DNA of 64,000 bases from Eubacteriales bacterium (lineage in GTDB: Bacteria; Bacillota; Clostridia; Christensenellales; Aristaeellaceae). The stretch is taken from the NCBI GenBank assembly GCA_034104265.1, contig JAXEEE010000058.1, positions 1,729-65,728 of the forward strand, written 5' to 3'. The notes beneath the pieces were generated by a model, which saw only the letters and a program-made list of their open reading frames with translations, ran no database searches and was not told the DNA's origin. Positions 211 to 46,869 of the stretch are shown here, one piece after another; position 1 is the stretch's first letter; every line of letters starts with the position of its first letter. The translations under genes were made by a program, and so were the position numbers.

Positions 211-2975
211 AGCCGCTTGTGCTGACCATGTCCGCCTTCGGCCCCTATGCAGGGCTGGAAAGGCTTGAAATGTCCCGCCTGGGTGATGAGGGACTGTACC
301 TTATCTGCGGCGATACAGGCGCGGGCAAGACCACCATCTTTGACGCGATCACCTATGCCCTGTACGGCAGACCCAGCGGCAGCGTCCGCAGCGAGAGCAT
401 GCTGCGCAGCCAGTACGCCGCGCCGGATACACCGACCTATGTGGAGCTGACCTTCTCCTCCGGTGACAGGGTGTATGTCATCCGCCGGAATCCCGAGTAC
501 GAGCGGCCAGCCCGGCGGGGCGGCGGCACCGCCACGGAAAAGGCCTCCGTCACGCTGGACATGGGGGATGGACGCATCATCACCCGCCGGGATGAAGCCA
601 ATGCTGCCATCGAGGCCATCCTTGGGCTGACAAGGGAGCAGTTCTCCCAGGTGGCCATGATTGCCCAGGGCGATTTTCTGCGCCTGCTGCTGGCAGGCAC
701 CCAGGAGCGCATGGCCATCTTTCGGAAGATCTTCTCCACGGAGCTGTTCGAGCGCATGCAGCAATCCCTGCGCAGCGACGCCAACGCGCTGATCCGCCAG
801 TACGAGGCTCTCCAGGCGGGGCTGCGGCAGTCCATTGCCGGCTTCTCCTGCCCGGACGACGCGCCCCAGGCTGAAGCGCTCCGGCTGGCCCGGGAGGGCC
901 GCATGCCCGAGGAGGAAGCGCTGCAGGCGGCAGACGCGCTGATCCTCTCGGACGAGGCGCAGCTGAAGGATACAGCACAGACCCTTCAGCAGACGGAGCA
1001 GGATATCCACGATGCCACCATCCGGCTGACCGTGGCCCAGGAGCAGGCGCGCCGGGAGCAGGCCCTTGCACAGGCACGGAAGGATCTGTCCGGGACGTCC
1101 GACGAAATGACGCGCGCGATGCGTGACCTCGATCAGGCGAAGACCAGCATTCCTCAGGCGGAAGCCATGGAGCAGCAGGCCGCCGGGATCCGCGCGACGC
1201 TCCCCCAGTATGATCAGCTGGAGGACTGCCGCCGCCGTGCAACAGACGCTGCGGGAGAAGCAGCCAGGCTGGCGGAGGAGCAGCAGCGGCTGCAAAGGGA
1301 CGCGGATCAGCTGCTGCAGGCGCTGACGGAAAACAAGGACCAGGCTGCAGAGCTGTCAGGCGCGGCAGCGGAGGCGGAGCATGCTTCGGCAGAGGTTCGC
1401 GCTGCGGAGGAAACCATGCTGCGCTTCAACGAGTTCGCCGCGCTGTGGAAGCAGGTTCATACCCTGCAGGAAGAATTTGCCGGAGCCAATGCGCGCTACC
1501 GGCAGCTGAGCGAGGAGGCAACGGCGCTTCACCGGCAGTACGCTGCGATGAACAGCGCCTTCCTGGCGGAGCAGGCGGGGATCCTGGCTGCGCAGCTGGA
1601 GGATGGGATGCCTTGCCCTGTGTGCGGGTCGCTGCACCATCCCGCCCGGGCATCGCTTACGGCGCAGGCTCCCTCGGAGCGGGATGTGGAAGCTGCCCGC
1701 CTGAAGGACGAAGCTGCCAGGAAGCAGGAGGATCAGGCAGGCCGGGCGGCCCAGGAGATCAACGGCAAGCTGCTGGCCAGCCGGGAACAGCTTGTTCAGC
1801 AGGCAAAGCTGCTGCTGGATACCGGCGATATGGACGCCATGCCCGCTGCCTACAAGGAACGCAAGGCTGCGCTGAATGCCCGTCGTGACGCTGCCCTGGA
1901 TGCGCGGAAGAAGGCCGCCGGCCGTGCTGATACGGCACGTCGGCTGAGCCAGCAGATCCCCCAGCAGGAGAAGCAGTATGCCGGATTGACGGCACGCATG
2001 AGCGCGGCTGCCTCCGCCATGGCGGAAAAGCAATCCGCTGCCGCACAGCTGGATCGGCAAATCCGCACCCTGCAGGCTGGTTTGCCCCATGCGGGCCGTC
2101 AGAAGGCCGAAGCAGAGGCGGACAGGCTGGCAGGTCAGGCGGCGGCTCTGCGCAATGCCCTTCAGCAGGCAGAGGTACAGTGTCAGACCATGCAGACCCG
2201 CAAGGCTGCGCTGGAGGGGCACATCCGCGCCCTGGAGGCGCAGCAGCAGACCGGGGCTCCCTGTGACGAGCAGGCGGAGCGCACCGTGCTGGAGTCCCTC
2301 ACCCTGCGCAAGCAGCAGCTGCAGGCACAGCAGCAGCGTCTGGCCTCCCGGCTGGAGGTCAACCGCCGGATGCTGCACAGCGCCCGGGCGCAGGCGGAGG
2401 AATGGCAGCGCTGCGGAGAACGGCGGGTATGGCTGGAGGCGCTGGCGGATACGGCCAACGGGCGGCTCACCGGGAAGGAGCGGGTCATGCTGGAAACCTA
2501 TGTGCAGATGGCCTGCTTTGACCGGGTGCTGCGCTACGCCAATACGCGCCTGATGGTGATGACCGGCGGTCAGTACGAGCTTCTCCGCCGCAAGGAGGCC
2601 GCGAACCGCCAAAGCTACAGCGGCCTAGAGCTTGATGTGCTGGATCATTACAACGGCACCACCCGCAGCGTAGCGAGCCTGTCCGGCGGCGAATCCTTCA
2701 AGGCGTCCCTGTCTCTGGCGCTAGGCATGTCCGACGCCATTCAGGCCTCCGCCGGCGGCGTGCGGCTGGACACCATGTTTGTGGACGAAGGCTTTGGCTC
2801 CCTGGATGAGGAATCCCTTGAAAAGGCGCTGCAGGCGCTGAGCAGCCTGAGCCAGGGGCATCGGCTTGTGGGGCTTATTTCCCATGTGGGCGCACTGAAG
2901 GATCGCATTGACAAGCGCATTGTTGTGGTGAAGCAGCGCAGCGGCGGAAGCCACGCGTCCATCGTGGCGGAATGA
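207..2975 (+). CDS. sbcC: Exonuclease SbcCD ATPase subunit SbcC (Rad50/SMC-like)
   Basis: N-terminal Walker A (GDTGAGKTT). Long Ala/Gln/Glu-rich coiled coil with a central zinc hook (CPVCGS). C-terminal signature and Walker B (LSGGE...FVDEGFGSLD). Confidence 0.9.
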   Translation: MKPLVLTMSAFGPYAGLERLEMSRLGDEGLYLICGDTGAGKTTIFDAITYALYGRPSGSVRSESMLRSQYAAPDTPTYVELTFSSGDRVYVIRRNPEYERPARRGGGTATEKASVTLDMGDGRIITRRDEANAAIEAILGLTREQFSQVAMIAQGDFLRLLLAGTQERMAIFRKIFSTELFERMQQSLRSDANALIRQYEALQAGLRQSIAGFSCPDDAPQAEALRLAREGRMPEEEALQAADALILSDEAQLKDTAQTLQQTEQDIHDATIRLTVAQEQARREQALAQARKDLSGTSDEMTRAMRDLDQAKTSIPQAEAMEQQAAGIRATLPQYDQLEDCRRRATDAAGEAARLAEEQQRLQRDADQLLQALTENKDQAAELSGAAAEAEHASAEVRAAEETMLRFNEFAALWKQVHTLQEEFAGANARYRQLSEEATALHRQYAAMNSAFLAEQAGILAAQLEDGMPCPVCGSLHHPARASLTAQAPSERDVEAARLKDEAARKQEDQAGRAAQEINGKLLASREQLVQQAKLLLDTGDMDAMPAAYKERKAALNARRDAALDARKKAAGRADTARRLSQQIPQQEKQYAGLTARMSAAASAMAEKQSAAAQLDRQIRTLQAGLPHAGRQKAEAEADRLAGQAAALRNALQQAEVQCQTMQTRKAALEGHIRALEAQQQTGAPCDEQAERTVLESLTLRKQQLQAQQQRLASRLEVNRRMLHSARAQAEEWQRCGERRVWLEALADTANGRLTGKERVMLETYVQMACFDRVLRYANTRLMVMTGGQYELLRRKEAANRQSYSGLELDVLDHYNGTTRSVASLSGGESFKASLSLALGMSDAIQASAGGVRLDTMFVDEGFGSLDEESLEKALQALSSLSQGHRLVGLISHVGALKDRIDKRIVVVKQRSGGSHASIVAE

Positions 2976-4187: not shown

Positions 4188-5102
4188 ATGAAAATCTTTG
4201 TGACCGGCGTGGCCGGACAACTGGGCCATGATGTGATGAACGAGCTGGCCCGGCGCGGGCATCAGGGGGTGGGCAGCGACCTGGCTCCGGCATACAGCGG
4301 CATTGACGATGGTTCCTATGTGACGGGCGCACCGTATGTGTCCATGGACATTACCGATGAACAGGCTGTCGCGCAGACGCTGCAGGCTGTGAGGCCGGAT
4401 GCGGTCATTCACTGCGCCGCCTGGACGGCCGTTGACGCTGCCGAGGACGACGACAAGCGGGACAAGGTATACGCCATCAACGTGTCCGGTACGGAGCATG
4501 TGGCCCGTGCCTGCAAGGCGCTGGACTGTAAAATGATGTACATCAGCACGGATTATGTCTTCAACGGGCAAGGCGACACGCCCTGGGAGCCCGACTGCCA
4601 GGACTACGCGCCCCTGTCCGTCTATGGGCAGACCAAGCTGGAGGGCGAGCTGGCGGTCAGCGGGCTGCTGCGGAAATTCTTCATTGTGCGGATTGCCTGG
4701 GTTTTTGGACTGAACGGCAAAAACTTTGTGAAAACCATGCTGAACCTCAGCCAGCGTTTCAGCAGCCTGCGGGTGGTCAGCGACCAGATTGGCACCCCCA
4801 CCTACACCCTTGACCTGGCGCGGCTGCTGGTGGACATGATCGAAACCGACCGCTACGGCTACTACCACGCCACCAACGAGGGCGGGTACATCTCCTGGTA
4901 CGACTTTGCCTGCGAGATTTTCCGCCAGGCGGGCAGGCAGGTGCAGGTGACGCCAGTTACCACGGCGGAGTACGGCCTGTCGAAGGCAGTCCGGCCCTTC
5001 AACAGCCGCCTGGACAAGCGCAAGCTGGCGGAGAACGGCTTCACCCCCCTGCCCCCCTGGCAGGACGCCCTGGCCCGGTACCTGAAGGAAATCGGCGAAT
5101 AA
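4188..5102 (+). CDS. rfbD: dTDP-4-dehydrorhamnose reductase
   Basis: MKIFVTGVAGQLG Rossmann N-terminus, a YGQTK catalytic motif, and RmlD-like length (304 aa). Confidence 0.9.
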   Translation: MKIFVTGVAGQLGHDVMNELARRGHQGVGSDLAPAYSGIDDGSYVTGAPYVSMDITDEQAVAQTLQAVRPDAVIHCAAWTAVDAAEDDDKRDKVYAINVSGTEHVARACKALDCKMMYISTDYVFNGQGDTPWEPDCQDYAPLSVYGQTKLEGELAVSGLLRKFFIVRIAWVFGLNGKNFVKTMLNLSQRFSSLRVVSDQIGTPTYTLDLARLLVDMIETDRYGYYHATNEGGYISWYDFACEIFRQAGRQVQVTPVTTAEYGLSKAVRPFNSRLDKRKLAENGFTPLPPWQDALARYLKEIGE

Positions 5103-34319: not shown

Positions 34320-34329
34320 GCATGCAGCA

Positions 34330-34361
34330 AAAAAGACCTGTCCTGCAGGACAGGTCTTTTT
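34330..34361. terminator. Bidirectional terminator between the MATE gene and the anti-sigma gene
   Basis: Perfect 32-nt palindrome AAAAAGACCTGTCCTG / CAGGACAGGTCTTTTT. Confidence 0.8.
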
Positions 34362-34374
34362 CATTTGCGGATGA

Positions 34375-35313
34375 TTACTGCATTGCAGCCTCGAAGGCCT
34401 CGAAGAATTCCGGGCAGCTCCAGGTACCGCAGGCGGACAGGTTGTCGTCCCGGACGGCCAGCTGAACCGTCAGGCCGTTGTCCAGACCAATCAGCAGGGA
34501 CTGCCTGCCGCTGACCGTTCCGCTGGATTCATAGGTGGCGCAGTCCAGCAGCGTGGACATGAGCCCCTCGCAGGTCGCCGCATCCGTGATGACGCCCACG
34601 TCGCTCAGCTCCATGCTGGCGATATGCCCGCTGATCTGCAGCGTATCGTCCAGGGCCTCACTGCCTCGCAGGGCGTTGCCGTTGAAGCTGACCCGCTGGA
34701 ACAGCCGCATGCTGCCGTTCACCTCCGCCGCCACCAGGGTGCCGCCCATGCCACTGATTTCGTACACCTCTGTGCCGAAGGCAGCTGCGTTGGACAGCAG
34801 CACATCACCGCCGGACAGGGAGGGCTCCGTGGTGAACTCCGCCACCGTGCCCAAACTGGTGCCCAGCAGGCTGTCGCTGACAGAGCCGGGGGTGGTCAGC
34901 ATCCGGTAGTACCGGCCCTGCGCACCGATGAGCGGGAAGGTGCCGCTGCCCTCCTCCCAAATGCTGCGGTAGGCGGGTGCAGCGCCATTCTGCCCGATGG
35001 ACACGCTGTCCTCGGACATGTTCAGCAGGGCGCGCTCACTGCCTGCGACGCCGTTGCCCGCCGCCTGGGATGTGATGAGGCTGTTCTGCCGCGGCTGGCG
35101 AAGCATCGGCACAGTGACGGCGACGCACACCACCAGCGCCATGGCACAGGCCAGCGCAGGAGCCCAGACCTTCCGCTTCCTGGGCTGAGGCGGCTGTGCG
35201 GCGGCGCGCTCAATGCGCAGCATCAGGTGGCGGTCGGCCTCCAGACCGGACAGGCTCCTGTCCGCCGTTTGGGACAGCTGCTCCAGCTGATGAAGCACCT
35301 CCTGACTTTTCAT
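34375..35313 (-). CDS. Putative anti-sigma factor: short cytoplasmic N-terminus, one TM segment, extracytoplasmic domain of about 230 aa of unknown type
   Basis: The ATG at 35313 overlaps (ATGA) the ECF sigma stop. Single TM segment (VWAPALACAMALVVCVAVTVPML). No recognisable domain in the C-terminal part. Confidence 0.6.
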   Translation of the reverse strand: MKSQEVLHQLEQLSQTADRSLSGLEADRHLMLRIERAAAQPPQPRKRKVWAPALACAMALVVCVAVTVPMLRQPRQNSLITSQAAGNGVAGSERALLNMSEDSVSIGQNGAAPAYRSIWEEGSGTFPLIGAQGRYYRMLTTPGSVSDSLLGTSLGTVAEFTTEPSLSGGDVLLSNAAAFGTEVYEISGMGGTLVAAEVNGSMRLFQRVSFNGNALRGSEALDDTLQISGHIASMELSDVGVITDAATCEGLMSTLLDCATYESSGTVSGRQSLLIGLDNGLTVQLAVRDDNLSACGTWSCPEFFEAFEAAMQ

Positions 35314-35864
35314 TCCGCCTCGCCTCCCTTCAGAATCTGTTCGAGCTTTTTCCGGCCTCTGCTCAGCCGGGATGAAATGGTTCCCTCGGGCAATTCCATC
35401 ATCTCTGCAATCTCCGTGATGCCATAGCCTTGATAATAGTGCAGCAGGATAACCTCCTTGAAGGAGGCCGGCAGCTGATTGATGGCGCTCATCAGCTCCT
35501 GCTGATCCGTCAGCTTGCCGATCTCGTCCGGCGCAGGCACAAGCTCGAATTTCGGGCTGCCCAGGACAACCCGCTTCACCCATGCGCCCCGCCACAGATC
35601 CCGGCAGCGGTTCAGCGCGACCTTCAAAAGCCACGCTTTCTCCCGGCCCTCCTGCAGCACAGGGGCATTGGTGATCAGACGGACGAACACGTCCTGGCAC
35701 ACGTCCTCCGCCTTCTGCCTGTCGCCCAGATAGAAGTAGCTTACGCGCAGCACATCGGTAGCATACTTTTCGTACAGCTCCTCGAAGTACGCGGTATCAT
35801 CCCGGACCTGCGCCGCCTGCACGAGCTCTTCCTCCCCGCCGTTTCTTTCGGACCGTTCAACCAT
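35310..35864 (-). CDS. ECF-type RNA polymerase sigma-70 family factor
   Basis: Region 2 (DVCQDVFVRLI, KAWLLKVALNRCRDLWR) and region 4 HTH (YQGYGITEIAEMMELPEGTISSRLSRGRKKL). Confidence 0.85.
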   Translation of the reverse strand: MVERSERNGGEEELVQAAQVRDDTAYFEELYEKYATDVLRVSYFYLGDRQKAEDVCQDVFVRLITNAPVLQEGREKAWLLKVALNRCRDLWRGAWVKRVVLGSPKFELVPAPDEIGKLTDQQELMSAINQLPASFKEVILLHYYQGYGITEIAEMMELPEGTISSRLSRGRKKLEQILKGGEAE

Positions 35865-36069: not shown

Positions 36070-37071
36070 TCAGATGGCCGCGCGTACCGCCATCACCCGG
36101 CGGGCCACGTCGGCAAATTCATCCGGCGTCAGGGACTGCGCACCGTCGCACAGGGCGTGCTTGGGATCGTTATGCACCTCGATCATCAGGCCATCCGCGC
36201 CGCAGGCGGCGGCTGCCAGCGCCATAGGCTTCACCAGACGGCTCACGCCCGTGGCATGGCTGGGATCCACAACCACTGGCAGATGCGTCTTTTCGTGCAG
36301 CACGGGGATGGCGGACAGGTCGAGGGTGTTGCGGGTGGCTGTCTCATAGGTGCGGATACCCCGCTCGCACAGGATGACCTGCTCGTTGCCGCCGGCCATG
36401 ATGTATTCCGCGCTCATCAGCAGCTCCTGGATGGTGTTGGCCAGGCCGCGCTTGAGCAGGATCGGCTTGCGCAGCTTCCCCAGCTCCTTGAGCAGCTCGA
36501 AGTTCTGCATGTTCCGCGCACCCACCTGGATCACGTCCACGTCCTCGAACAGGGGCAGATGCGCCGCGTCCATGATTTCCGTGACGATGGGCAGACCTGT
36601 TTCCGCTTTGGCCAGCTTCAGCAGCCGCAGGCCCTCGCCGTGCAGGCCCTGAAAGGCGTAAGGCGAGGTGCGGGGCTTGAAGGCACCGCCGCGCAGCAGC
36701 GTTGCGCCCGCCGCCTTGACCGCCCGGGCCACGGTGATGATCTGCTCCTCCGTCTCCACAGAGCAGGGACCGGCGATGATCTGGAACATGCCTCCGCCGA
36801 TCTTTACCCCTGCGCCGCAGTCCACTACGGTGTCCGCAGGATGGAACTTGCGGTTGGCGTTCTTGTAGGGCTCCTGGATCCGCCGCACGTCTTCCACCGC
36901 GTCCAGGGTGGCGATCAGGTCGGGATCCACCCGGGTGGTGTCGCCGATCAGGCCCATGATGGTGGAGTTTTCGCCCTGGGAGAAGTGGATCCGCAGGCCC
37001 ATGCTGCCAAGGAATTCCTTGAGCTTGTCCACCTGATCCTGGGGAGCGTTCTGCTTGAGAATGACGATCAT
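36070..37071 (-). CDS. aroF: 3-deoxy-7-phosphoheptulonate (DAHP) synthase, type I-beta, with an N-terminal ferredoxin-like regulatory domain
   Basis: Catalytic core ([30 protein letters not shown]). The N-terminal roughly 65 aa ([21 protein letters not shown]...) resemble the regulatory domain of Thermotoga-type DAHPS. The ATG at 37071 lies 9 nt after GGAGG. Confidence 0.9.
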
Positions 37072-37122
37072 GCTACCATACCTCCGTACTGCATTTTTCT
37101 TGGGAACCGTTCTGCCGTGCTT

Positions 37123-37158
37123 CAAAGAAAACGCCCTGCGGCGTCATGCCACAGGGCG
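37123..37158 (-). terminator. Attenuator terminator in the DAHP synthase leader
   Basis: On the minus strand: CGCCCTGTGGC, ATGAC loop, GCCGCAGGGCG (11 bp, one G.U pair), followed by TTTTCTTTG. Located 52 nt upstream of the aroF start. Confidence 0.7.
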
Positions 37159-37188
37159 GATGGATGTCCATGCCAAAATCACGCCCTG

Positions 37189-37236
37189 TCACTGGAACAG
37201 CACGTAATAATAATAACCGAAATAACGGCGCAGCAT
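37189..37236 (-). CDS. Candidate 15-aa leader peptide MLRRYFGYYYYVLFQ (5 Tyr and 2 Phe codons)
   Basis: The ATG lies 7 nt after AGGGAGG. Four consecutive Tyr codons (TAT TAT TAT TAC). The TGA stop abuts the sequence CAGGGCG, which can pair with the 5' arm of the downstream terminator. Confidence 0.55.
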   Translation of the reverse strand: MLRRYFGYYYYVLFQ

Positions 37237-37309
37237 GAGGCATCCTCCCTTTCTTTGCGACTATCATACCCTACTTTTGCCCTTTTGGCAAGAGAAAAAC
37301 CGAAAAAAG

Positions 37310-38053
37310 TCAATGATTCCGTCCGGTTTCCTCCAGGTACTTCTCCAGCTTGCGCTTCACGCGCTGGAGCGCGTTATCGATGGATTTGACGTGACGGCCC
37401 AGGTTGTCGGCGATCTCCTGATAGCTTTTCCCGTCCAGGTAGGCCCGCAGCACCTCCTGCTCCAGACCGGAGAGCACCTCGTCAATCTTGTGGTTGATGC
37501 TGGACAGATCCTCCTGCCCGATGATCAATTCCTCCGGGTTAGTGGCCCGCCCCTCGATGATCACGTCCAGGAGCGTCCGGTCGCTTTCCTCGTCATAGAG
37601 GGGCTTGTTGAGGGAAACGTAGCTGTTCAGGGGGATGTGCTTCTGGCGGGTGGCAGTCTTGATGGCGGTGATGATCTGCCGGGTGATGCACAATTCCGCA
37701 AAGGCGCGGAAGGAGGACAGCTTGTCCGGACGGAAGTCGCGGATGGCCTTGTACAGGCCGATCATGCCCTCCTGCACAATGTCCTCGTGATCCGCGCCGA
37801 TGAGGAAGTAGCTGCGGGCCTTGGAGCGGACGAAGTTCTTGTACTTGTTCAGCAGGTATTCCTCCGCCACATTGTCACCATTCCGGCACAGGGCCACAAT
37901 ATCCTCGTCGCTCATGGACGAATAGTCGGAGGGAAAGGAAGCCTCGTCCTCCGTCTCCAGGCCGTCAGGCTGCCCCTCCTGCTGCATGGCAAGGGCCTCC
38001 AGCTCTTCGTCGGTCAGGTCCATGTCACGTTCATCCATTGCATTCACATCCAT
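37310..38053 (-). CDS. sigH: Sporulation/stationary-phase sigma factor SigH with an acidic N-terminal extension
   Basis: Near-identical blocks to Bacillus SigH (KARSYFLIGADHEDIVQEGMIGLYKAIRDF, FAELCITRQIITAIKTATRQKHIPLNSY). Synteny with yacP and rlmB. Confidence 0.85.
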   Translation of the reverse strand: MDVNAMDERDMDLTDEELEALAMQQEGQPDGLETEDEASFPSDYSSMSDEDIVALCRNGDNVAEEYLLNKYKNFVRSKARSYFLIGADHEDIVQEGMIGLYKAIRDFRPDKLSSFRAFAELCITRQIITAIKTATRQKHIPLNSYVSLNKPLYDEESDRTLLDVIIEGRATNPEELIIGQEDLSSINHKIDEVLSGLEQEVLRAYLDGKSYQEIADNLGRHVKSIDNALQRVKRKLEKYLEETGRNH

Positions 38054-38065
38054 TCATCGCATTGC

Positions 38066-38575
38066 TTATTTTCCGCGGCGCATAGCCTCCAGGGCGTTCA
38101 GGGTATCCTGGGGCAGGCGCGAAGCCAGGGAGGCCTTGGGTGCGGTGCTGACCGTGCGGTGCTGCTCCATACCCCGCTGACGCAGATGCCTTAGCTCCCG
38201 CAATAGCTCCCGGGAGGTCAGGCGGATCGCCCCTGTGGACAGCACCTGGCTCTGCTCCAGGCCGTCGGAGGTGGCCACGCGGACGGCACGGTACTTGGGC
38301 GTCTGGGCCACCAGGCGCTCAATGTAGCTGTCGGCGGTTTCGCCATGGCGGGTGTACACCAGCGTCAGATTGCCGAACTGCTCCTCGGTGCGGATTTTCC
38401 TGTCGGACTGGTACCCGTCGAAGACCAGCACCACGTCCTCCCCGGAATAGCCGCTGTAATCCTCCAGCAGGCGCAGCAGACGGTCGCGGCACTCGTCGAT
38501 GGACCAGCGCTCCTTCTCCGCCTCCCGCCACGCGCCGATGACGTTATACCCATCGACGATCAGCAGCGGTCTCAT
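38066..38575 (-). CDS. yacP: NYN-domain ribonuclease YacP/Rae1-like
   Basis: MRPLLIVDGYNVIGAW... and VVLVFDG motifs. Conserved position between rlmB and sigH. Confidence 0.85.
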   Translation of the reverse strand: MRPLLIVDGYNVIGAWREAEKERWSIDECRDRLLRLLEDYSGYSGEDVVLVFDGYQSDRKIRTEEQFGNLTLVYTRHGETADSYIERLVAQTPKYRAVRVATSDGLEQSQVLSTGAIRLTSRELLRELRHLRQRGMEQHRTVSTAPKASLASRLPQDTLNALEAMRRGK

Positions 38576-39720
38576 GCCCGCCGGGTGGACAGCACGCGGT
38601 ACATCATGATGCCTGCCGCCACCGAGGCGTTCAGGCTGTCAATATGCCCTGCCATGGGCAGGGAAACACGCTGGTCGCAGGATTCGAGGGTCAGACGGCT
38701 GATGCCCTCGCCCTCAGCGCCGATCACCAGCGCCACGCCGCCCTTGAAATTCACCTGCTCGTAGTCCTGGCCGTCCATGGTCACGGCGTAGGTCCATACG
38801 CCCTGCTTCTTCAGTTCGTCAATGGTGCGGTTCAGGTTGACCACACGGGCCACCTTCATGTGCTCCACCGCACCGGCGGAGGCCTTCACCGCCGCGGGGG
38901 TCAGCCCCACGCTGCGCCGCTCGGGCACAATCACCCCATGGGCGCCCGCGCACTCCGCGCTGCGGATGATCGCGCCCAGGTTGTGGGGATCGGTCACGCC
39001 GTCCAGCAGAATCAGGAATGGTTCCTCGCCCCGCTCGCGGGCGATCTCCAGCATGGCGTCCACCGTGCTGTACTGGTAGGCGGAGGCGAAAGCCAGCATG
39101 CCCTGATGATGGGGCGCGATCTCGTCCAGGCGGGACTTGTCCACCTCCTGCACGGGCACCCGGGCCTCCCTGGCCATCTGCACGATCTCCCGGGCGGAGC
39201 CGGACAGCTCGCCACGCTGCACCAGCAGCTTCTCCAGGTCGCGGCCGCTCTTCAGCGCCTCGCGGATGGGGTTGCGGCCGGCCAGCACGTTTTCCATGCG
39301 GTCGATCTGCTCCTCCATAGGAACGGGGACAGCCACGGGCGCGCGATGCTCGAAGTCCCGGTAGCTGACCTCCCTGCGGGGCGCGGCCTCCACAGGACGG
39401 CGCTCCTCCCGGGGATGGCGGTCGGCGGGCCGGGCATTGTCCCGGCGATCGCCGTAGGGCTTGCGGTCACCCTCCCGGCGATGCTCGCCATAGGGGCGGT
39501 GGTCGCCTTCCCTGCGGCGATCCCCATAGGGACGGCGGTCGCCCTCAGGCCTGCGGCTGCCCCCGCGCACGGTGCGGCTTTCGCCCTCGCCCTCCTCAGC
39601 ATTGGGGCCGAAGCGGCGGTTGGCCGGGCGGTAGTGGGTGCCCTCGTCATCCCAGGAGCCCTGGTTGGCGTAGTTCTTTTTCCGGGGGTGACGATCGGGT
39701 ACATCCTTGTAAAATGCCAT
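38572..39720 (-). CDS. rlmB: 23S rRNA (guanosine-2'-O)-methyltransferase RlmB/YacO with an Arg-rich N-terminal extension of about 130 aa
   Basis: SpoU/TrmH core (GRNPIREAL, LDGVTDPHNLGAIIRSAE, ALVIGAEGEGIS, SLNASVAAGI). The extension contains three copies of a 12-aa repeat EGD(R/H)(R/K)PYG(D/E)(R/H)R(R/D). Confidence 0.85.
   Translation of the reverse strand: MAFYKDVPDRHPRKKNYANQGSWDDEGTHYRPANRRFGPNAEEGEGESRTVRGGSRRPEGDRRPYGDRRREGDHRPYGEHRREGDRKPYGDRRDNARPADRHPREERRPVEAAPRREVSYRDFEHRAPVAVPVPMEEQIDRMENVLAGRNPIREALKSGRDLEKLLVQRGELSGSAREIVQMAREARVPVQEVDKSRLDEIAPHHQGMLAFASAYQYSTVDAMLEIARERGEEPFLILLDGVTDPHNLGAIIRSAECAGAHGVIVPERRSVGLTPAAVKASAGAVEHMKVARVVNLNRTIDELKKQGVWTYAVTMDGQDYEQVNFKGGVALVIGAEGEGISRLTLESCDQRVSLPMAGHIDSLNASVAAGIMMYRVLSTRRA
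39439..39546 (-). repeat. Tandem 36-bp in-frame coding repeat, three copies, in the rlmB 5' region
   Basis: Encodes EGDRRPYGDRRR / EGDHRPYGEHRR / EGDRKPYGDRRD. Confidence 0.8.
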
Positions 39721-39783
39721 GATGCTGATTCTCCTTCATTCAATCAATGGTCGTGGACAGCGGCGATTTGCCGCCGGAAACGG

Positions 39784-40530
39784 TTATTCCTTCGCAGTCA
39801 GCGCGTCCAGCATGTCCCTGCGGGCCTTGCGGATTTCCGCCGCCCTGCCGCAGGATTTCGCGCCCTCCGGGCATGCGCCCCGAAGGCAGCCCGGCCCCGC
39901 ATCAGCGAACAGCGCAGGCGCGACCTCCATGCACAGGCGGTGCATATGAGTAGCCAGGGCGCGGATCTCCCACTGGGCACGGCTGCACATCCGCAGGCTG
40001 AAGAAGTGCCGCAGCTCCCGCACATTCATGGTCATCATCAGCCGGGTTTCGCAGGCGCCGGGAAGCACGAAGCGCGCGTCCTCGTTGCTGCTCTCCCCTG
40101 CCGCACCCAGCCGCTCCTGCCACTGGCAGTACCACTGGTGCATCTGATTCATCTGGCGGGCGTACTCATCGGCAGCGTCCTGGCCCAAAGCGGCGATCTT
40201 CGGCGGAACAATGTAGCCGAAGCCCTGCTCGTAGCTGACGTACCGCTGGCTCTGCACGGAGAAGCTGGCCAGGCGGTGGCGGGTCAGCTGGGCCAGCAGC
40301 ACCCGGCTCACGCCCTCCACGCCGAAGGTGAAGGACGCATGCTCCAGCACGGAATCATGCCCCATGCCCATGATCTTCTGCACAAAGTCCGACTGATCCC
40401 TGGCGCTGACGCGCTCCTTCAGGTCGTCGATGGTGGCCCGGGAGTAGCACAGCCGCGCACCCAGGGCGACGATTTCCTCCGGGGACAGGGTGTGGCGGAT
40501 CAGCGCCACATGGAGCTTCACTTCGGGCAT
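39784..40530 (-). CDS. thyX: FAD-dependent thymidylate synthase ThyX
   Basis: ThyX signature RHRLASFSVQSQRY and a length of 248 aa. Overlaps the mrnC 3' end by 13 nt. Confidence 0.9.
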   Translation of the reverse strand: MPEVKLHVALIRHTLSPEEIVALGARLCYSRATIDDLKERVSARDQSDFVQKIMGMGHDSVLEHASFTFGVEGVSRVLLAQLTRHRLASFSVQSQRYVSYEQGFGYIVPPKIAALGQDAADEYARQMNQMHQWYCQWQERLGAAGESSNEDARFVLPGACETRLMMTMNVRELRHFFSLRMCSRAQWEIRALATHMHRLCMEVAPALFADAGPGCLRGACPEGAKSCGRAAEIRKARRDMLDALTAKE

Positions 40531-45432: not shown

Positions 45433-46869
45433 CTACAGGAAGATGAAGATCAGTATGACGGGAAGAATGGACAATACGGACATGGCGAACATTGCGCCAT
45501 AGTCTGATGATGTGGTCGGGTCACAGAAGAGCTTCAGTGCCAGACTCACAGGATACATCTCCGTCTTGTCCACATACAGCAGGGCGGAAAGAAAATCATC
45601 CCAGAGCCAGATGAAGGGAAAAATGCCCGAGGTGATCAGCGCGGGAACCATCAGGGGAAGAATCACCCGGGTGAAAATGCCGTAGTAGGAACAGCCGTCG
45701 ATTTTGGCGGCCTCGTCCAATTCCCTGGGGATGCCGCAGATAAAATTCTGCATCAGATAAACGAAGAAACCCTGTGTCGCGAAGAAGAACGGGACGATCA
45801 GGGGCATATAGGTACCCACCCACCCCAGCTTCTGATACCACAGATACTGGGGGATCATCAGCACCTGCGCCGGAAGCATCATGGTTGCCAGCATGGCTGC
45901 GAACAGCGGCTTCCTGCACAGGAAGCGAAGGCGGGCAAAGCCATAGGCCACGACGGACGAGGAAATCAGCGCACCCACGGTTGCAGCAACCGATATCCAC
46001 GCAGAATTCAGGAAGAAGCGGCCGAAATGCACTTTGCCAAAGCCCTTCCAGCCGGTGACGTAATTGTCCAGGGTCCATTCACGGGGCCATAATTCACCGG
46101 CGGTGGTAAAAATGGTGTTGGTCGGCTTGAAGGAGGAAAAAATCATCCAGAGCAGTGGGTAGATCATGACAATGCCCAGCGCACACACCGCAGCGTGAAA
46201 GATCAGCTGCGAGGCAGTCTTCTTCAGCCGCGCGCATCTGAGTGTTCGGGCATGTTCTGCCGGCAGCTTGCGCGCTATCATGTCCCTCATACGCCAGAAG
46301 TCAGTAAGCGGCCGGTGAGACCATAGCAGCTGTCGGTATCTCATTTCATCCAGCTCTGCAATGCGGACTCCGTCCTTGTCGGGATGAGCCTTCTTCGCCA
46401 CGATGTCCATGGCGACCTTGGCGAGATACAGGTTTGTGCCGATGCCCGCCGTTGCCGTAATGCCTGTATTGTACAGCACATCGCGGATCATGATCATCGT
46501 CAGATCATGGGCCGTCATTCCATAGGTGTGCAGGTAATCGGTCACGTCAATAAAGACCTTGTCGATGGAATAGACAAGAATGTCATCCGGGGCTACATAT
46601 GGGCAGTTACGTGTCAAATCAGAGATGCAACCGTCAGACAATGCTATATGAACAAGATTAACTTCAGGCCCAGCAACGTCAGCTTCGATTTTCGTCTCAT
46701 CCTGCCGAAGATCTCCGACAACCTTTTTTCTGCAGTGATCGGCGCCCCGGGACAGAATAATCTCGGCAACCAGGGTTTCCCACTGTTCGATGGGATGCAT
46801 CGTTTCAGGCTTTATGCCTGATCCTTCCCAAGCCACTATATGATGCAATGGCTCATGATGAAAAAGCAA
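45433..46869 (-). CDS. Chimeric ORF: unknown N-terminus plus a Y-family DNA polymerase fragment, fused in frame to a carbohydrate ABC transporter permease (MalG-type)
   Basis: Residues about 90-215 match Y-family polymerase palm/thumb motifs (VYSIDKVFIDVT, GITATAGIGTNLYLAKVAMDIVAKK, PLTDFWR). From about residue 216 the sequence is a permease (IYPLLWMIFSSFKP, EAA loop IPRELDEAAKIDG). Possible internal starts lie at 46290 and 46281. Confidence 0.6.
   Translation of the reverse strand: MLFHHEPLHHIVAWEGSGIKPETMHPIEQWETLVAEIILSRGADHCRKKVVGDLRQDETKIEADVAGPEVNLVHIALSDGCISDLTRNCPYVAPDDILVYSIDKVFIDVTDYLHTYGMTAHDLTMIMIRDVLYNTGITATAGIGTNLYLAKVAMDIVAKKAHPDKDGVRIAELDEMRYRQLLWSHRPLTDFWRMRDMIARKLPAEHARTLRCARLKKTASQLIFHAAVCALGIVMIYPLLWMIFSSFKPTNTIFTTAGELWPREWTLDNYVTGWKGFGKVHFGRFFLNSAWISVAATVGALISSSVVAYGFARLRFLCRKPLFAAMLATMMLPAQVLMIPQYLWYQKLGWVGTYMPLIVPFFFATQGFFVYLMQNFICGIPRELDEAAKIDGCSYYGIFTRVILPLMVPALITSGIFPFIWLWDDFLSALLYVDKTEMYPVSLALKLFCDPTTSSDYGAMFAMSVLSILPVILIFIFL
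46197..46600 (-). pseudogene. Y-family (UmuC/DinB-like) DNA polymerase fragment lacking the N-terminal catalytic motifs and the little-finger domain
   Basis: Only the motif III and helix-hairpin-helix region are present. No D-x-D-x-F-[FY]-A-S-V-E block appears in any frame upstream. Confidence 0.6.

Follow-up and report, generated by a model that had tools for sequence, protein, structure and literature searches.

The leader upstream of aroF

We analysed a stretch of 64,000 nt (hereafter the window) from the Eubacteriales bacterium assembly GCA_034104265.1 (contig JAXEEE010000058.1, positions 1,729 to 65,728), in which a 238-nt leader interval on the minus strand lies between a sigH-like gene (38053..37310) and aroF (37071..36070), the gene for a type I-beta DAHP synthase, which catalyses the opening reaction of the aromatic amino acid pathway. 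The interval carries a short open reading frame (ORF) dense in Tyr codons, followed by hairpins that exclude one another in silico, and an original prediction, made from the sequence alone, had proposed it to be a leader-peptide attenuator of aroF. The target had been correctly named as a DAHP synthase with an N-terminal domain: the product has the Pfam domains DAHP_synth_1 and, at its N-terminus, DAHP_snth_FXD, and it is matched over its full length (E = 4e-102) by Thermotoga maritima DAH7PS (1RZM/3PG9), a Tyr-inhibited enzyme. The gene is monocistronic, with a terminator-like hairpin at its 3′ side and then a separate ECF sigma factor gene.

Reading of the minus strand (37250..37189) confirmed the leader ORF as it had been described, with a Shine-Dalgarno (SD) sequence 7 nt before the ATG. 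Its codons are ATG CTG CGC CGT TAT TTC GGT TAT TAT TAT TAC GTG CTG TTC CAG TGA, so that MLRRYFGYYYYVLFQ contains five Tyr and two Phe in 15 codons, four of the Tyr being consecutive. On both strands of the 64-kb window it is the sole ATG-started, SD-preceded short ORF with at least five aromatic residues in eight. The stop codon abuts the octamer ACAGGGCG (37189..37182), as had been noted; indeed, the first A of ACAGGGCG is the last base of the leader UGA stop. Segment 1, which precedes it, begins within the last-but-one Tyr codon, covers the whole of the last, and runs on into the Val, Leu and Phe codons (GUGCUGU). The strong terminator expected before aroF was also found. It reads CGCCCTGTGGC-ATGAC-GCCGCAGGGCG (37158..37132) and has an 11-bp stem with 9 G-C pairs, a 5-nt loop, a stem free energy of -23.0 kcal/mol and a U-tract; the opening 8 nt of the stem are CGCCCTGT (37158..37151). 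Two distances had to be corrected: we counted 23 nt, rather than 24, from ACAGGGCG to CGCCCTGT, and 51 nt, rather than 52, from the end of the U-tract to the aroF ATG at 37071. The features are collected in Table 1.

Table 1. Features of the aroF leader and of the aroF gene in the window
Feature	Coordinates	Strand	Basis
Sigma-70-type promoter TTGCCA-17 nt-TATGAT (-35 box 37291..37286, -10 box 37268..37263)	37263..37291	-	consensus scan, 10/12 matches
Leader Shine-Dalgarno AGGGAGG, 7 nt 5′ of the leader ATG	37244..37250	-	read directly
Leader ORF MLRRYFGYYYYVLFQ with UGA stop, 15 codons	37189..37236	-	
Four-Tyr run UAU UAU UAU UAC (codons 8-11), proposed ribosome stall site	37204..37215	-	
Segment 1 AUUACGUGCUGU, 5′ arm of hairpin 1:2 (anti-antiterminator)	37197..37208	-	minimum-energy fold
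Segment 2 ACAGGGCGUGAU, 3′ arm of hairpin 1:2	37178..37189	-	minimum-energy fold
Segment 2 core ACAGGGCG, 5′ strand of the antiterminator	37189..37182	-	
GGCAUG, predicted 3′ strand of the outer helix; partner CAUGCU at the leader start codon (37237..37232)	37169..37174	-	minimum-energy folds
Segment 3 CGCCCUGUGGC, terminator 5′ arm; first 8 nt form the antiterminator 3′ strand	37148..37158	-	
Segment 4 GCCGCAGGGCG, terminator 3′ arm	37132..37142	-	
U-tract UUUUCUUUG (DNA TTTTCTTTG), expected 3′ end of the attenuated transcript	37123..37131	-	
aroF, type I-beta DAHP synthase with N-terminal ferredoxin-like regulatory domain	36070..37071	-	Pfam PF00793 + PF18152
aroF Shine-Dalgarno GGAGG	37085..37081	-	

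When we looked at codon choice, four of the five leader Tyr codons (37204..37225) proved to be UAU, as against 34 UAC and 13 UAU in six neighbouring genes, and under the usage of these genes such a bias has a chance of about 2%. Slow wobble decoding or weak pairing in segment 1 may have been selected for, or the bias may be fortuitous.

Two other short frames were considered and rejected. A 64-codon ORF in another frame (37073..37267, minus strand) spans the whole leader and would turn the Tyr run into four UUA (Leu) codons. We judged that it is not real: it starts inside the -10 box, the second of its ATGs directly adjoins the SD sequence, its ATGs are without a usable SD, and the non-aromatic frames are seldom open in relatives. 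Elsewhere in the window, the SD-preceded, Leu-rich short ORF MRRKSKLTLLGLKLILFI (46644..46700, minus strand) was put down to chance, as it lies out of frame inside a 478-codon ORF (45433..46869).

Folding of the leader RNA

The leader RNA folds at -64.3 kcal/mol, compared with -46.2 +/- 4.1 kcal/mol for dinucleotide shuffles (z = -4.4), and none of 200 shuffles was as stable. In the free RNA, hairpin 1:2 (AUUACGUGCUGU/ACAGGGCGUGAU) forms together with the terminator. The alternative duplex between segments 2 and 3 (2:3), that is, the 8-bp antiterminator pairing of ACAGGGCG with CGCCCUGU that had been proposed, reaches -18.7 kcal/mol when folded alone (z = -3.4; 0/200 shuffles equal it). Thus the terminator and antiterminator of the earlier scheme both stand, but its three segments do not; four are present, and hairpin 1:2 had been overlooked along with the promoter.

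Ribosome positions were mimicked by constrained folds with a footprint. Placing the A site on the isolated Tyr5 left both hairpin 1:2 and the terminator in place. An A site on Tyr9 or Tyr10 puts segment 1 under the footprint, and ACAGGGCG with its flanking bases pairs with CGCCCUGU; this antiterminator fold amounts to -21.8 kcal/mol before the terminator 3′ arm has been made, and it is still the full-length optimum at -30.8 kcal/mol. On the first or last codon of the run, the antiterminator forms as long as the 3′ arm is missing and the terminator is the full-length optimum. A ribosome on the stop codon shields segment 2, and the terminator alone forms (-27.9 kcal/mol). The originally proposed geometry, in which a ribosome at the stop codon covers ACAGGGCG and allows termination while one on the Tyr run leaves it free, was therefore reproduced by the constrained folds. 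The comparison of fold energies that had been suggested gave the terminator as the default and the antiterminator as the optimum only with a ribosome on codons 9-10. Termination is the default outcome because segment 1 holds ACAGGGCG when no ribosome is stalled.

The whole free leader is closed by a further helix, between the flank of the leader SD and a CU-rich tract before the terminator, together with an outer helix. In the window the latter, CAUGCU/GGCAUG, is a prediction only; in relatives the outer helix covaries, and the position of GGCAUG corresponds to the conserved UUUGYGCUGCAA motif of low-GC relatives described below. All five members of the window's clade, folded as free RNA, pair the SD flank (37244..37256 in the window) with the CU-rich tract (37159..37166) in the minimum-energy structure; such pairings include GGAUG/CAUCC in the window, GGACGC/GCGUCC in L002 and GGGAG/CUCCC in L081. 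Once complete or terminated, a leader would thus have its own ribosome-binding site masked.

The short ORF in relatives

A search with the DAHP synthase protein, keeping one genome per species, gave 80 loci with 65-96% identity, or 81 with the window (the genome set). We scored as a leader ORF any ATG-started frame of 8-45 codons with at least five Tyr, Phe or Trp in eight residues, lying at most 300 nt upstream of the gene. Such an ORF was present at 64 of the 81 loci, compared with 0/81 on the reverse complement and 1.65/81 in Markov shuffles. Independent metagenome contigs gave a similar picture (53 of the 73 loci with enough upstream sequence; none on the reverse complement). The Tyr/Phe ORF is thus conserved in orthologous upstream regions, which the original prediction had named as a check, and compensatory hairpin changes accompany it, as described in the following sections. 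In the genome set a strong intrinsic terminator lies 20-110 nt 5′ of the gene at nearly every leader-bearing locus.

Typical leader peptides of the relatives are MSILVFAAAYYYFYFMCTKSKSDFCCN, MKLNGFYFYGYYFFEPIS and MTIRSFTAAYYYYYYFTGKSN. The aromatic run alone is conserved in them; their length ranges from 14 to about 40 residues, and they differ greatly at the termini and in the residues flanking the run. An SD-like site precedes the in-frame ATG in 59 of the 64 leader-bearing relatives. When the three frames were compared over the 64 loci, an SD-preceded in-frame ATG was found for the Tyr/Phe frame at 60 and for the other two frames at 1 and 2, a count in which the 60 is favoured by selection, the loci having been chosen for an ORF in that frame. 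The runs comprise 217 Tyr, 186 Phe and a single Trp, and would therefore make a Tyr/Phe sensor, not a Trp sensor.

A sigH-like upstream gene occurs in the three closest relatives only and is absent from 61 leader-bearing relatives; since the upstream gene varies, the element belongs to the DAHP synthase gene. By record title the carriers include Oscillospiraceae, Lachnospiraceae, Christensenellaceae, Acutalibacteraceae, Anaerovoracaceae and others, and the closest relative (96% identity) is labelled Aristaeellaceae, a family of Clostridia. Cultured carriers include Angelakisella massiliensis (L014), Hominicoprocola fusiformis (L008) and Pseudoflavonifractor (L055). At 82% identity, L081 and L082 have the leader MLNRFAVGYYYALHQESRA and the same hairpins as the window. 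These two loci also carry an insert of about 200 nt between the attenuator terminator and the start of the DAHP synthase gene (about 795..1000 in L081).

Hairpin conservation in low-GC relatives

The window has a G+C content of 62%, whereas most of the relatives' leaders are near 30%. By eye the low-GC leaders follow one design. Their outer helix pairs UUUGCAGC, the Phe-Ala-Ala codons before the run, with GCUGCAAA, while in the inner helix the aromatic codons (UACUUUUACUUU) themselves pair with AAAGUAAAAGUG; a conserved non-coding motif, UUUGYGCUGCAA, lies 3′ of the hairpin. We specified these helices by hand and then refined them with a covariance model.

In an unfitted MAFFT alignment of 20 sequences, 81.7% of the cells were paired, compared with 33-61% when the partners were slid, and the covariation was reached by 3 of 500 shuffles. 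The covariance model built from this 20-sequence alignment, R1, finds 35 of the 80 genome loci. The alignment fitted to the model gave 84.4% paired cells against 33-54% in the slid controls; 10 of its 20 pairs change on both sides (30 cells), and none of 500 shuffles reaches its covariation score. At one pair, where a Phe codon (UUU) has become a Tyr codon (UAU), the partner base has gone from A to U (UA 18, AU 6). When the arms of the codon-bearing hairpin were swapped between loci, the native combinations were better by 3.2 kcal/mol on average (0/10,000 permutations). The aromatic codons of the relatives thus form the 5′ arm of this hairpin, with covariation. Automated folding was less productive: from 61 leaders aligned with MAFFT, RNAalifold recovered no more than 5 terminator pairs, and for 20 hairpin regions it predicted no structure.

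Antiterminator in relatives and in the window's clade

Across the relatives, support for the antiterminator is weaker, but consistent. With a stalled ribosome and the terminator 3′ arm left out, 76% of the bases of the terminator 5′ arm pair upstream, compared with 57% in shuffles, and this upstream pairing has z < -1.64 at 29 of 62 loci. Spacers and terminator arms fit each other better in their native combinations than when swapped (by 1.3 kcal/mol; 0/10,000 permutations, p < 1e-4). In 26 of 32 modelled loci, where about 10 would be expected by chance, the terminator 5′ arm pairs best, among all positions of the spacer, with the 3′ strand of the outer helix of the leader hairpin. Such a choice of partner gives the mutual exclusivity that the mechanism requires.

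The window's own clade consists of the window, L001, L002, L003 and L081. In the four relatives the TTGC.. and TATGAT promoter boxes are retained, and TATTATTAC is identical in all five sequences. Segments 2 and 3 read ACAGGGCG/CGCCCUGU in the window and L001 and GCAGGGCG/CGCCCUGC in L003 and L081, a compensatory change from A-U to G-C. Compensatory changes also occur in the terminator (L001, L002 and L003), and the helix of hairpin 1:2 is retained with such changes in L081 and L003.

Database scans

An Rfam scan of 36500..38000 of the window at E <= 10 found no family, neither a T-box (RF00230) nor the trpB motif, and at gathering thresholds none of 38 relatives showed a family, or a T-box, upstream of the DAHP synthase gene. 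The sole matches there are sub-threshold ones to the trpB motif and the L20 leader, which cover a generic hairpin and terminator. One of them was found in a relative scanned at E <= 10, the low-GC leader of L020, where 2359..2483 match RF04312 (trpB motif) with 34.2 bits against a 59-bit cut-off (E = 0.002). The trpB motif is an orphan riboswitch candidate of Firmicutes made of a hairpin and a terminator, for which the authors could not exclude a classic attenuator (PMC11109978). In L058 a DAHP synthase gene that lacks the leader is followed, about 1.3 kb further on, by a T-box leader (93.6 bits; 4759..5003). Our literature search likewise returned no description of a clostridial aroF leader of the Tyr/Phe type beyond the precedents cited in the last section, and Rfam 15 has none.

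Within the window, the only match of R1 with default filters is at 34321..34380 (minus strand; 13.9 bits, E = 1.5), between two ORFs, and consists of a GACCUGUCCU/AGGACAGGUC hairpin followed by UUUUUUGCUGC. This is most likely an ordinary terminator.

Proposed mechanism and alternative explanations

We consider it probable, with fairly high confidence, that the element is a classical four-segment, ribosome-mediated attenuator that tunes aroF to the supply of charged tRNA-Tyr and secondarily of tRNA-Phe. From the parts, folds and conservation described above we infer translation of the leader, ribosome stalling, regulated premature termination and the dominance of Tyr. Transcription would start about 7 nt 3′ of the TATGAT box, and a ribosome would load at AGGGAGG and translate MLRRYFGYYYYVLFQ. 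If Tyr-tRNA were plentiful, the ribosome would reach the UGA and shield segment 2 (ACAGGGCG) or, if it had already gone, segment 1 would hold segment 2 in hairpin 1:2; segments 3 and 4 would then form the terminator, and transcription would stop near 37123, before aroF. If Tyr-tRNA (or Phe-tRNA) were scarce, the ribosome would stall on UAU-UAU-UAU-UAC and cover segment 1, and the freed segment 2 would pair with CGCCCUGU (segment 3) as soon as this was made, so that the terminator would be blocked and RNA polymerase would continue into aroF. Such transcriptional control would add to the presumed allosteric inhibition through the N-terminal domain of the enzyme.

Several observations weigh against this attenuator. 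The simple 2:3 duplex, tested locus by locus, has a median z of only -0.76 and reaches p <= 0.05 at 14 of 62 loci, although such per-locus shuffle tests (2:3 and 1:2) have low power for short A/U-rich helices and the between-locus swaps are more informative. The clade offers only five distinct sequences, in which segments 2 and 3 are mostly invariant and a single 2:3 position covaries. For the full RNA at equilibrium with a stalled ribosome, the terminator stays the optimum in L001, L002, L003 and L081, and only the window itself flips to the antiterminator; antitermination must therefore be kinetic, as is the decision of the E. coli trp attenuator. Conservation of the aromatic codons could be partly structural, not coding, since the codons form a conserved hairpin arm. 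Finally, R1 and R2, covariance models built without the window's clade as a test of homology, give the window's leader no more than 1.4 bits (E about 10) and also fail to detect L001-L003, L081 and L083.

That the selection on nucleotides is real, the aromatic codons lying in a conserved and covarying hairpin, would also suit an attenuator of the TRAP, PyrR or riboswitch-like kind, in which a protein or ligand reads the UAY/UUY repeats or the hairpin and the ORF is incidental. The non-coding UUUGYGCUGCAA conserved after the hairpin and the sub-threshold trpB match (RF04312, PMC11109978) of L020 point the same way. We nevertheless regard this as improbable: the SD-preceded in-frame ATG belongs to the Tyr/Phe frame at 60 of the 64 loci selected for it and to the other frames at 1 and 2; Tyr and Phe codons interchange freely, with aromatic identity kept and the 3′ arm compensating (UA 18, AU 6); the ORF length and the rest of the peptide are unconserved; and neither the window nor the 38 relatives have an Rfam family at threshold, the trpB match covering only a generic hairpin and terminator. 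A switch acting mainly on translation or mRNA stability, such as sequestration of a ribosome-binding site by the long leader helix, is slightly less probable still. It would make use of the pairing of the leader SD region with the CU-rich tract in the free folds (5/5 clade sequences), but the aroF SD lies 37 nt past the U-tract, outside every predicted leader structure, and the G+C-rich stem with its U-tract is present in nearly all relatives.

The very hydrophobic and aromatic character of the leader peptides, and the existence of trans-acting leader peptides such as peTrpL (PMC7298713), raise the idea that the short ORF acts through its nascent peptide (TnaC-like arrest) or as a trans micropeptide rather than through the supply of charged tRNA. 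We give this a marginally smaller chance again, given that only the aromatic run is conserved while length, termini and flanks vary, that the run is invariably located within, or immediately 5′ of, the hairpin arm competing with the antiterminator strand, and that induction by free Tyr makes no physiological sense for a biosynthetic gene. Least probable of all, and by our estimate very improbable, is that the hairpin and U-tract are the terminator of sigH or a constitutive roadblock, with the Tyr-rich ORF a coincidence. In its favour, the hairpin follows sigH in the same orientation, and the search for strong terminators turned up no other between sigH and the leader promoter. However, a promoter with 10/12 matches stands between sigH and the leader, the 61 leader-bearing relatives without a sigH-like upstream gene keep the leader ORF and nearly always the terminator, and the ORF is present at 64/81 loci compared with 0 on the reverse complement and about 2 in shuffles. 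The comparative data contradict this explanation.

The window's leader is missed by R1 and R2, so that its common descent with the large low-GC family is not demonstrated. R2 does reach further relatives of intermediate GC (e.g., L107, E = 2e-4), and homology is plausible in view of the orthologous gene, the same architecture and a GUGAUUUUGGCAUGGA that resembles GUGAUUUKUGCUGCAA.

Neighbouring genes

The assignment of the upstream gene as sigH, made in the original prediction, received support. The gene (38053..37310) encodes sigma-70 regions 2 and 4 and is preceded by SpoU-methylase and YacP genes (Pfam). Across 37310..40530 the minus-strand order is thyX (Thy1), a SpoU-type rRNA methylase, a YacP NYN-domain protein and the sigma factor, which we take to match the yacO-yacP-sigH neighbourhood of Bacillus subtilis; this resemblance in gene order supports the sigH identity. 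Beyond aroF, the ECF-type sigma factor gene (35864..35310, minus strand) is followed by an overlapping 441-codon ORF, both within 34375..35864. The 441-codon ORF has no Pfam match and may encode the anti-sigma partner of the ECF sigma factor.

Significance

In our estimate it is an evenly balanced question whether the window's element belongs to a large, uncatalogued family of Tyr/Phe leader attenuators for type I-beta DAHP synthase across several families of Clostridia (Oscillospiraceae, Lachnospiraceae, Christensenellaceae, Acutalibacteraceae, Anaerovoracaceae and Aristaeellaceae), in which the codons themselves form the anti-antiterminator arm. Were this the case, gut and rumen anaerobes would routinely control the entrance to the aromatic pathway by sensing tRNA charging through translation. 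In Firmicutes, T-boxes are thought to do the tRNA sensing for this pathway. How much carbon flows into Phe, Tyr and Trp is set by DAHP synthase. Its presumed allosteric control responds to the free amino acid via the N-terminal domain, and the attenuator would add to this a transcriptional response to tRNA charging. On the strength of work on B. subtilis, transcription and translation are held to be largely uncoupled in this phylum. An amino-acid leader peptide widely conserved in Clostridia bears on the extent to which Firmicutes can use transcription-translation coupling for regulation.

More than 100 uncultured Clostridia from gut, rumen and bioreactor (both sets together) carry the arrangement, and annotation without an Rfam model misses the regulator. 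A compact Tyr/Phe-responsive expression switch or biosensor for anaerobes would be a possible use.

Comparison with known systems

In its logic the element resembles the E. coli leaders pheL-pheA, pheM-pheST and trpL-trpEDCBA, with four segments (1:2, 2:3, 3:4), a leader of similar size (pheL has 15 codons, 7 of them Phe), regulatory codons in or next to segment 1, a stop next to segment 2 and a terminator more stable than the antiterminator. Unlike these, it belongs to another phylum, shows no sequence similarity to them in the Rfam scan and is dominated by Tyr; its target is the common-pathway DAHP synthase, whereas the E. coli attenuators act on a terminal-branch enzyme. T-boxes (RF00230), the usual tRNA-sensing attenuators of Firmicutes, likewise switch between a terminator and an antiterminator in front of amino-acid genes according to tRNA charging, but they bind uncharged tRNA directly and need no translation.

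The original prediction had called such a leader unusual for Firmicutes. This is partly right, but predicted leader-peptide attenuators were already known there, in his operons (PMC9413887) and upstream of Acholeplasma aroF (PMC8632094). The former occur in the his operons of Peptostreptococcaceae, the Bacillus cereus group and Erysipelotrichales and, like the present element, combine a leader peptide with a terminator and antiterminator and were found by comparative reasoning; unlike it, they use His codons, are confined to narrow lineages and are unrelated in sequence (PMC9413887). The latter, uORFC-13-1, is a predicted attenuator represented by 24 sequences from Acholeplasma and environmental samples, exclusively upstream of aroF, and comprises promoter boxes, a ribosome-binding site, a start codon, a Phe-coding U-run, an extra base-paired element and an adjacent intrinsic terminator (PMC8632094). 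Its architecture, which we compared by description only, is very close to that of the low-GC family; it differs in its emphasis on Phe rather than Tyr, and is a prediction without experimental validation (PMC8632094).

The closest precedent in function is aroR-aroF of Corynebacterium glutamicum, whose leader was first predicted in PMC4046766. As summarised in PMC11802643, which cites Neshat et al. 2014, this leader contains Phe-Tyr-Phe, and stalling on it raises read-through; the same account has aroR responding to limitation of Phe, not of Tyr, and heading an operon. As far as that summary goes, both systems have aromatic codons in a short ORF that precedes a DAHP synthase gene, and they share the pathway step and the mechanism. 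They differ in that aroR is actinobacterial, with three aromatic codons and an operon, whereas the window's leader is clostridial, has a run of four Tyr within seven aromatic codons and precedes a monocistronic gene. The proposed mechanism is a textbook one and aroF precedents exist; of interest are the absence of the element from RNA family databases, the Tyr-dominated run, and the breadth and clarity of its conservation in Clostridia.

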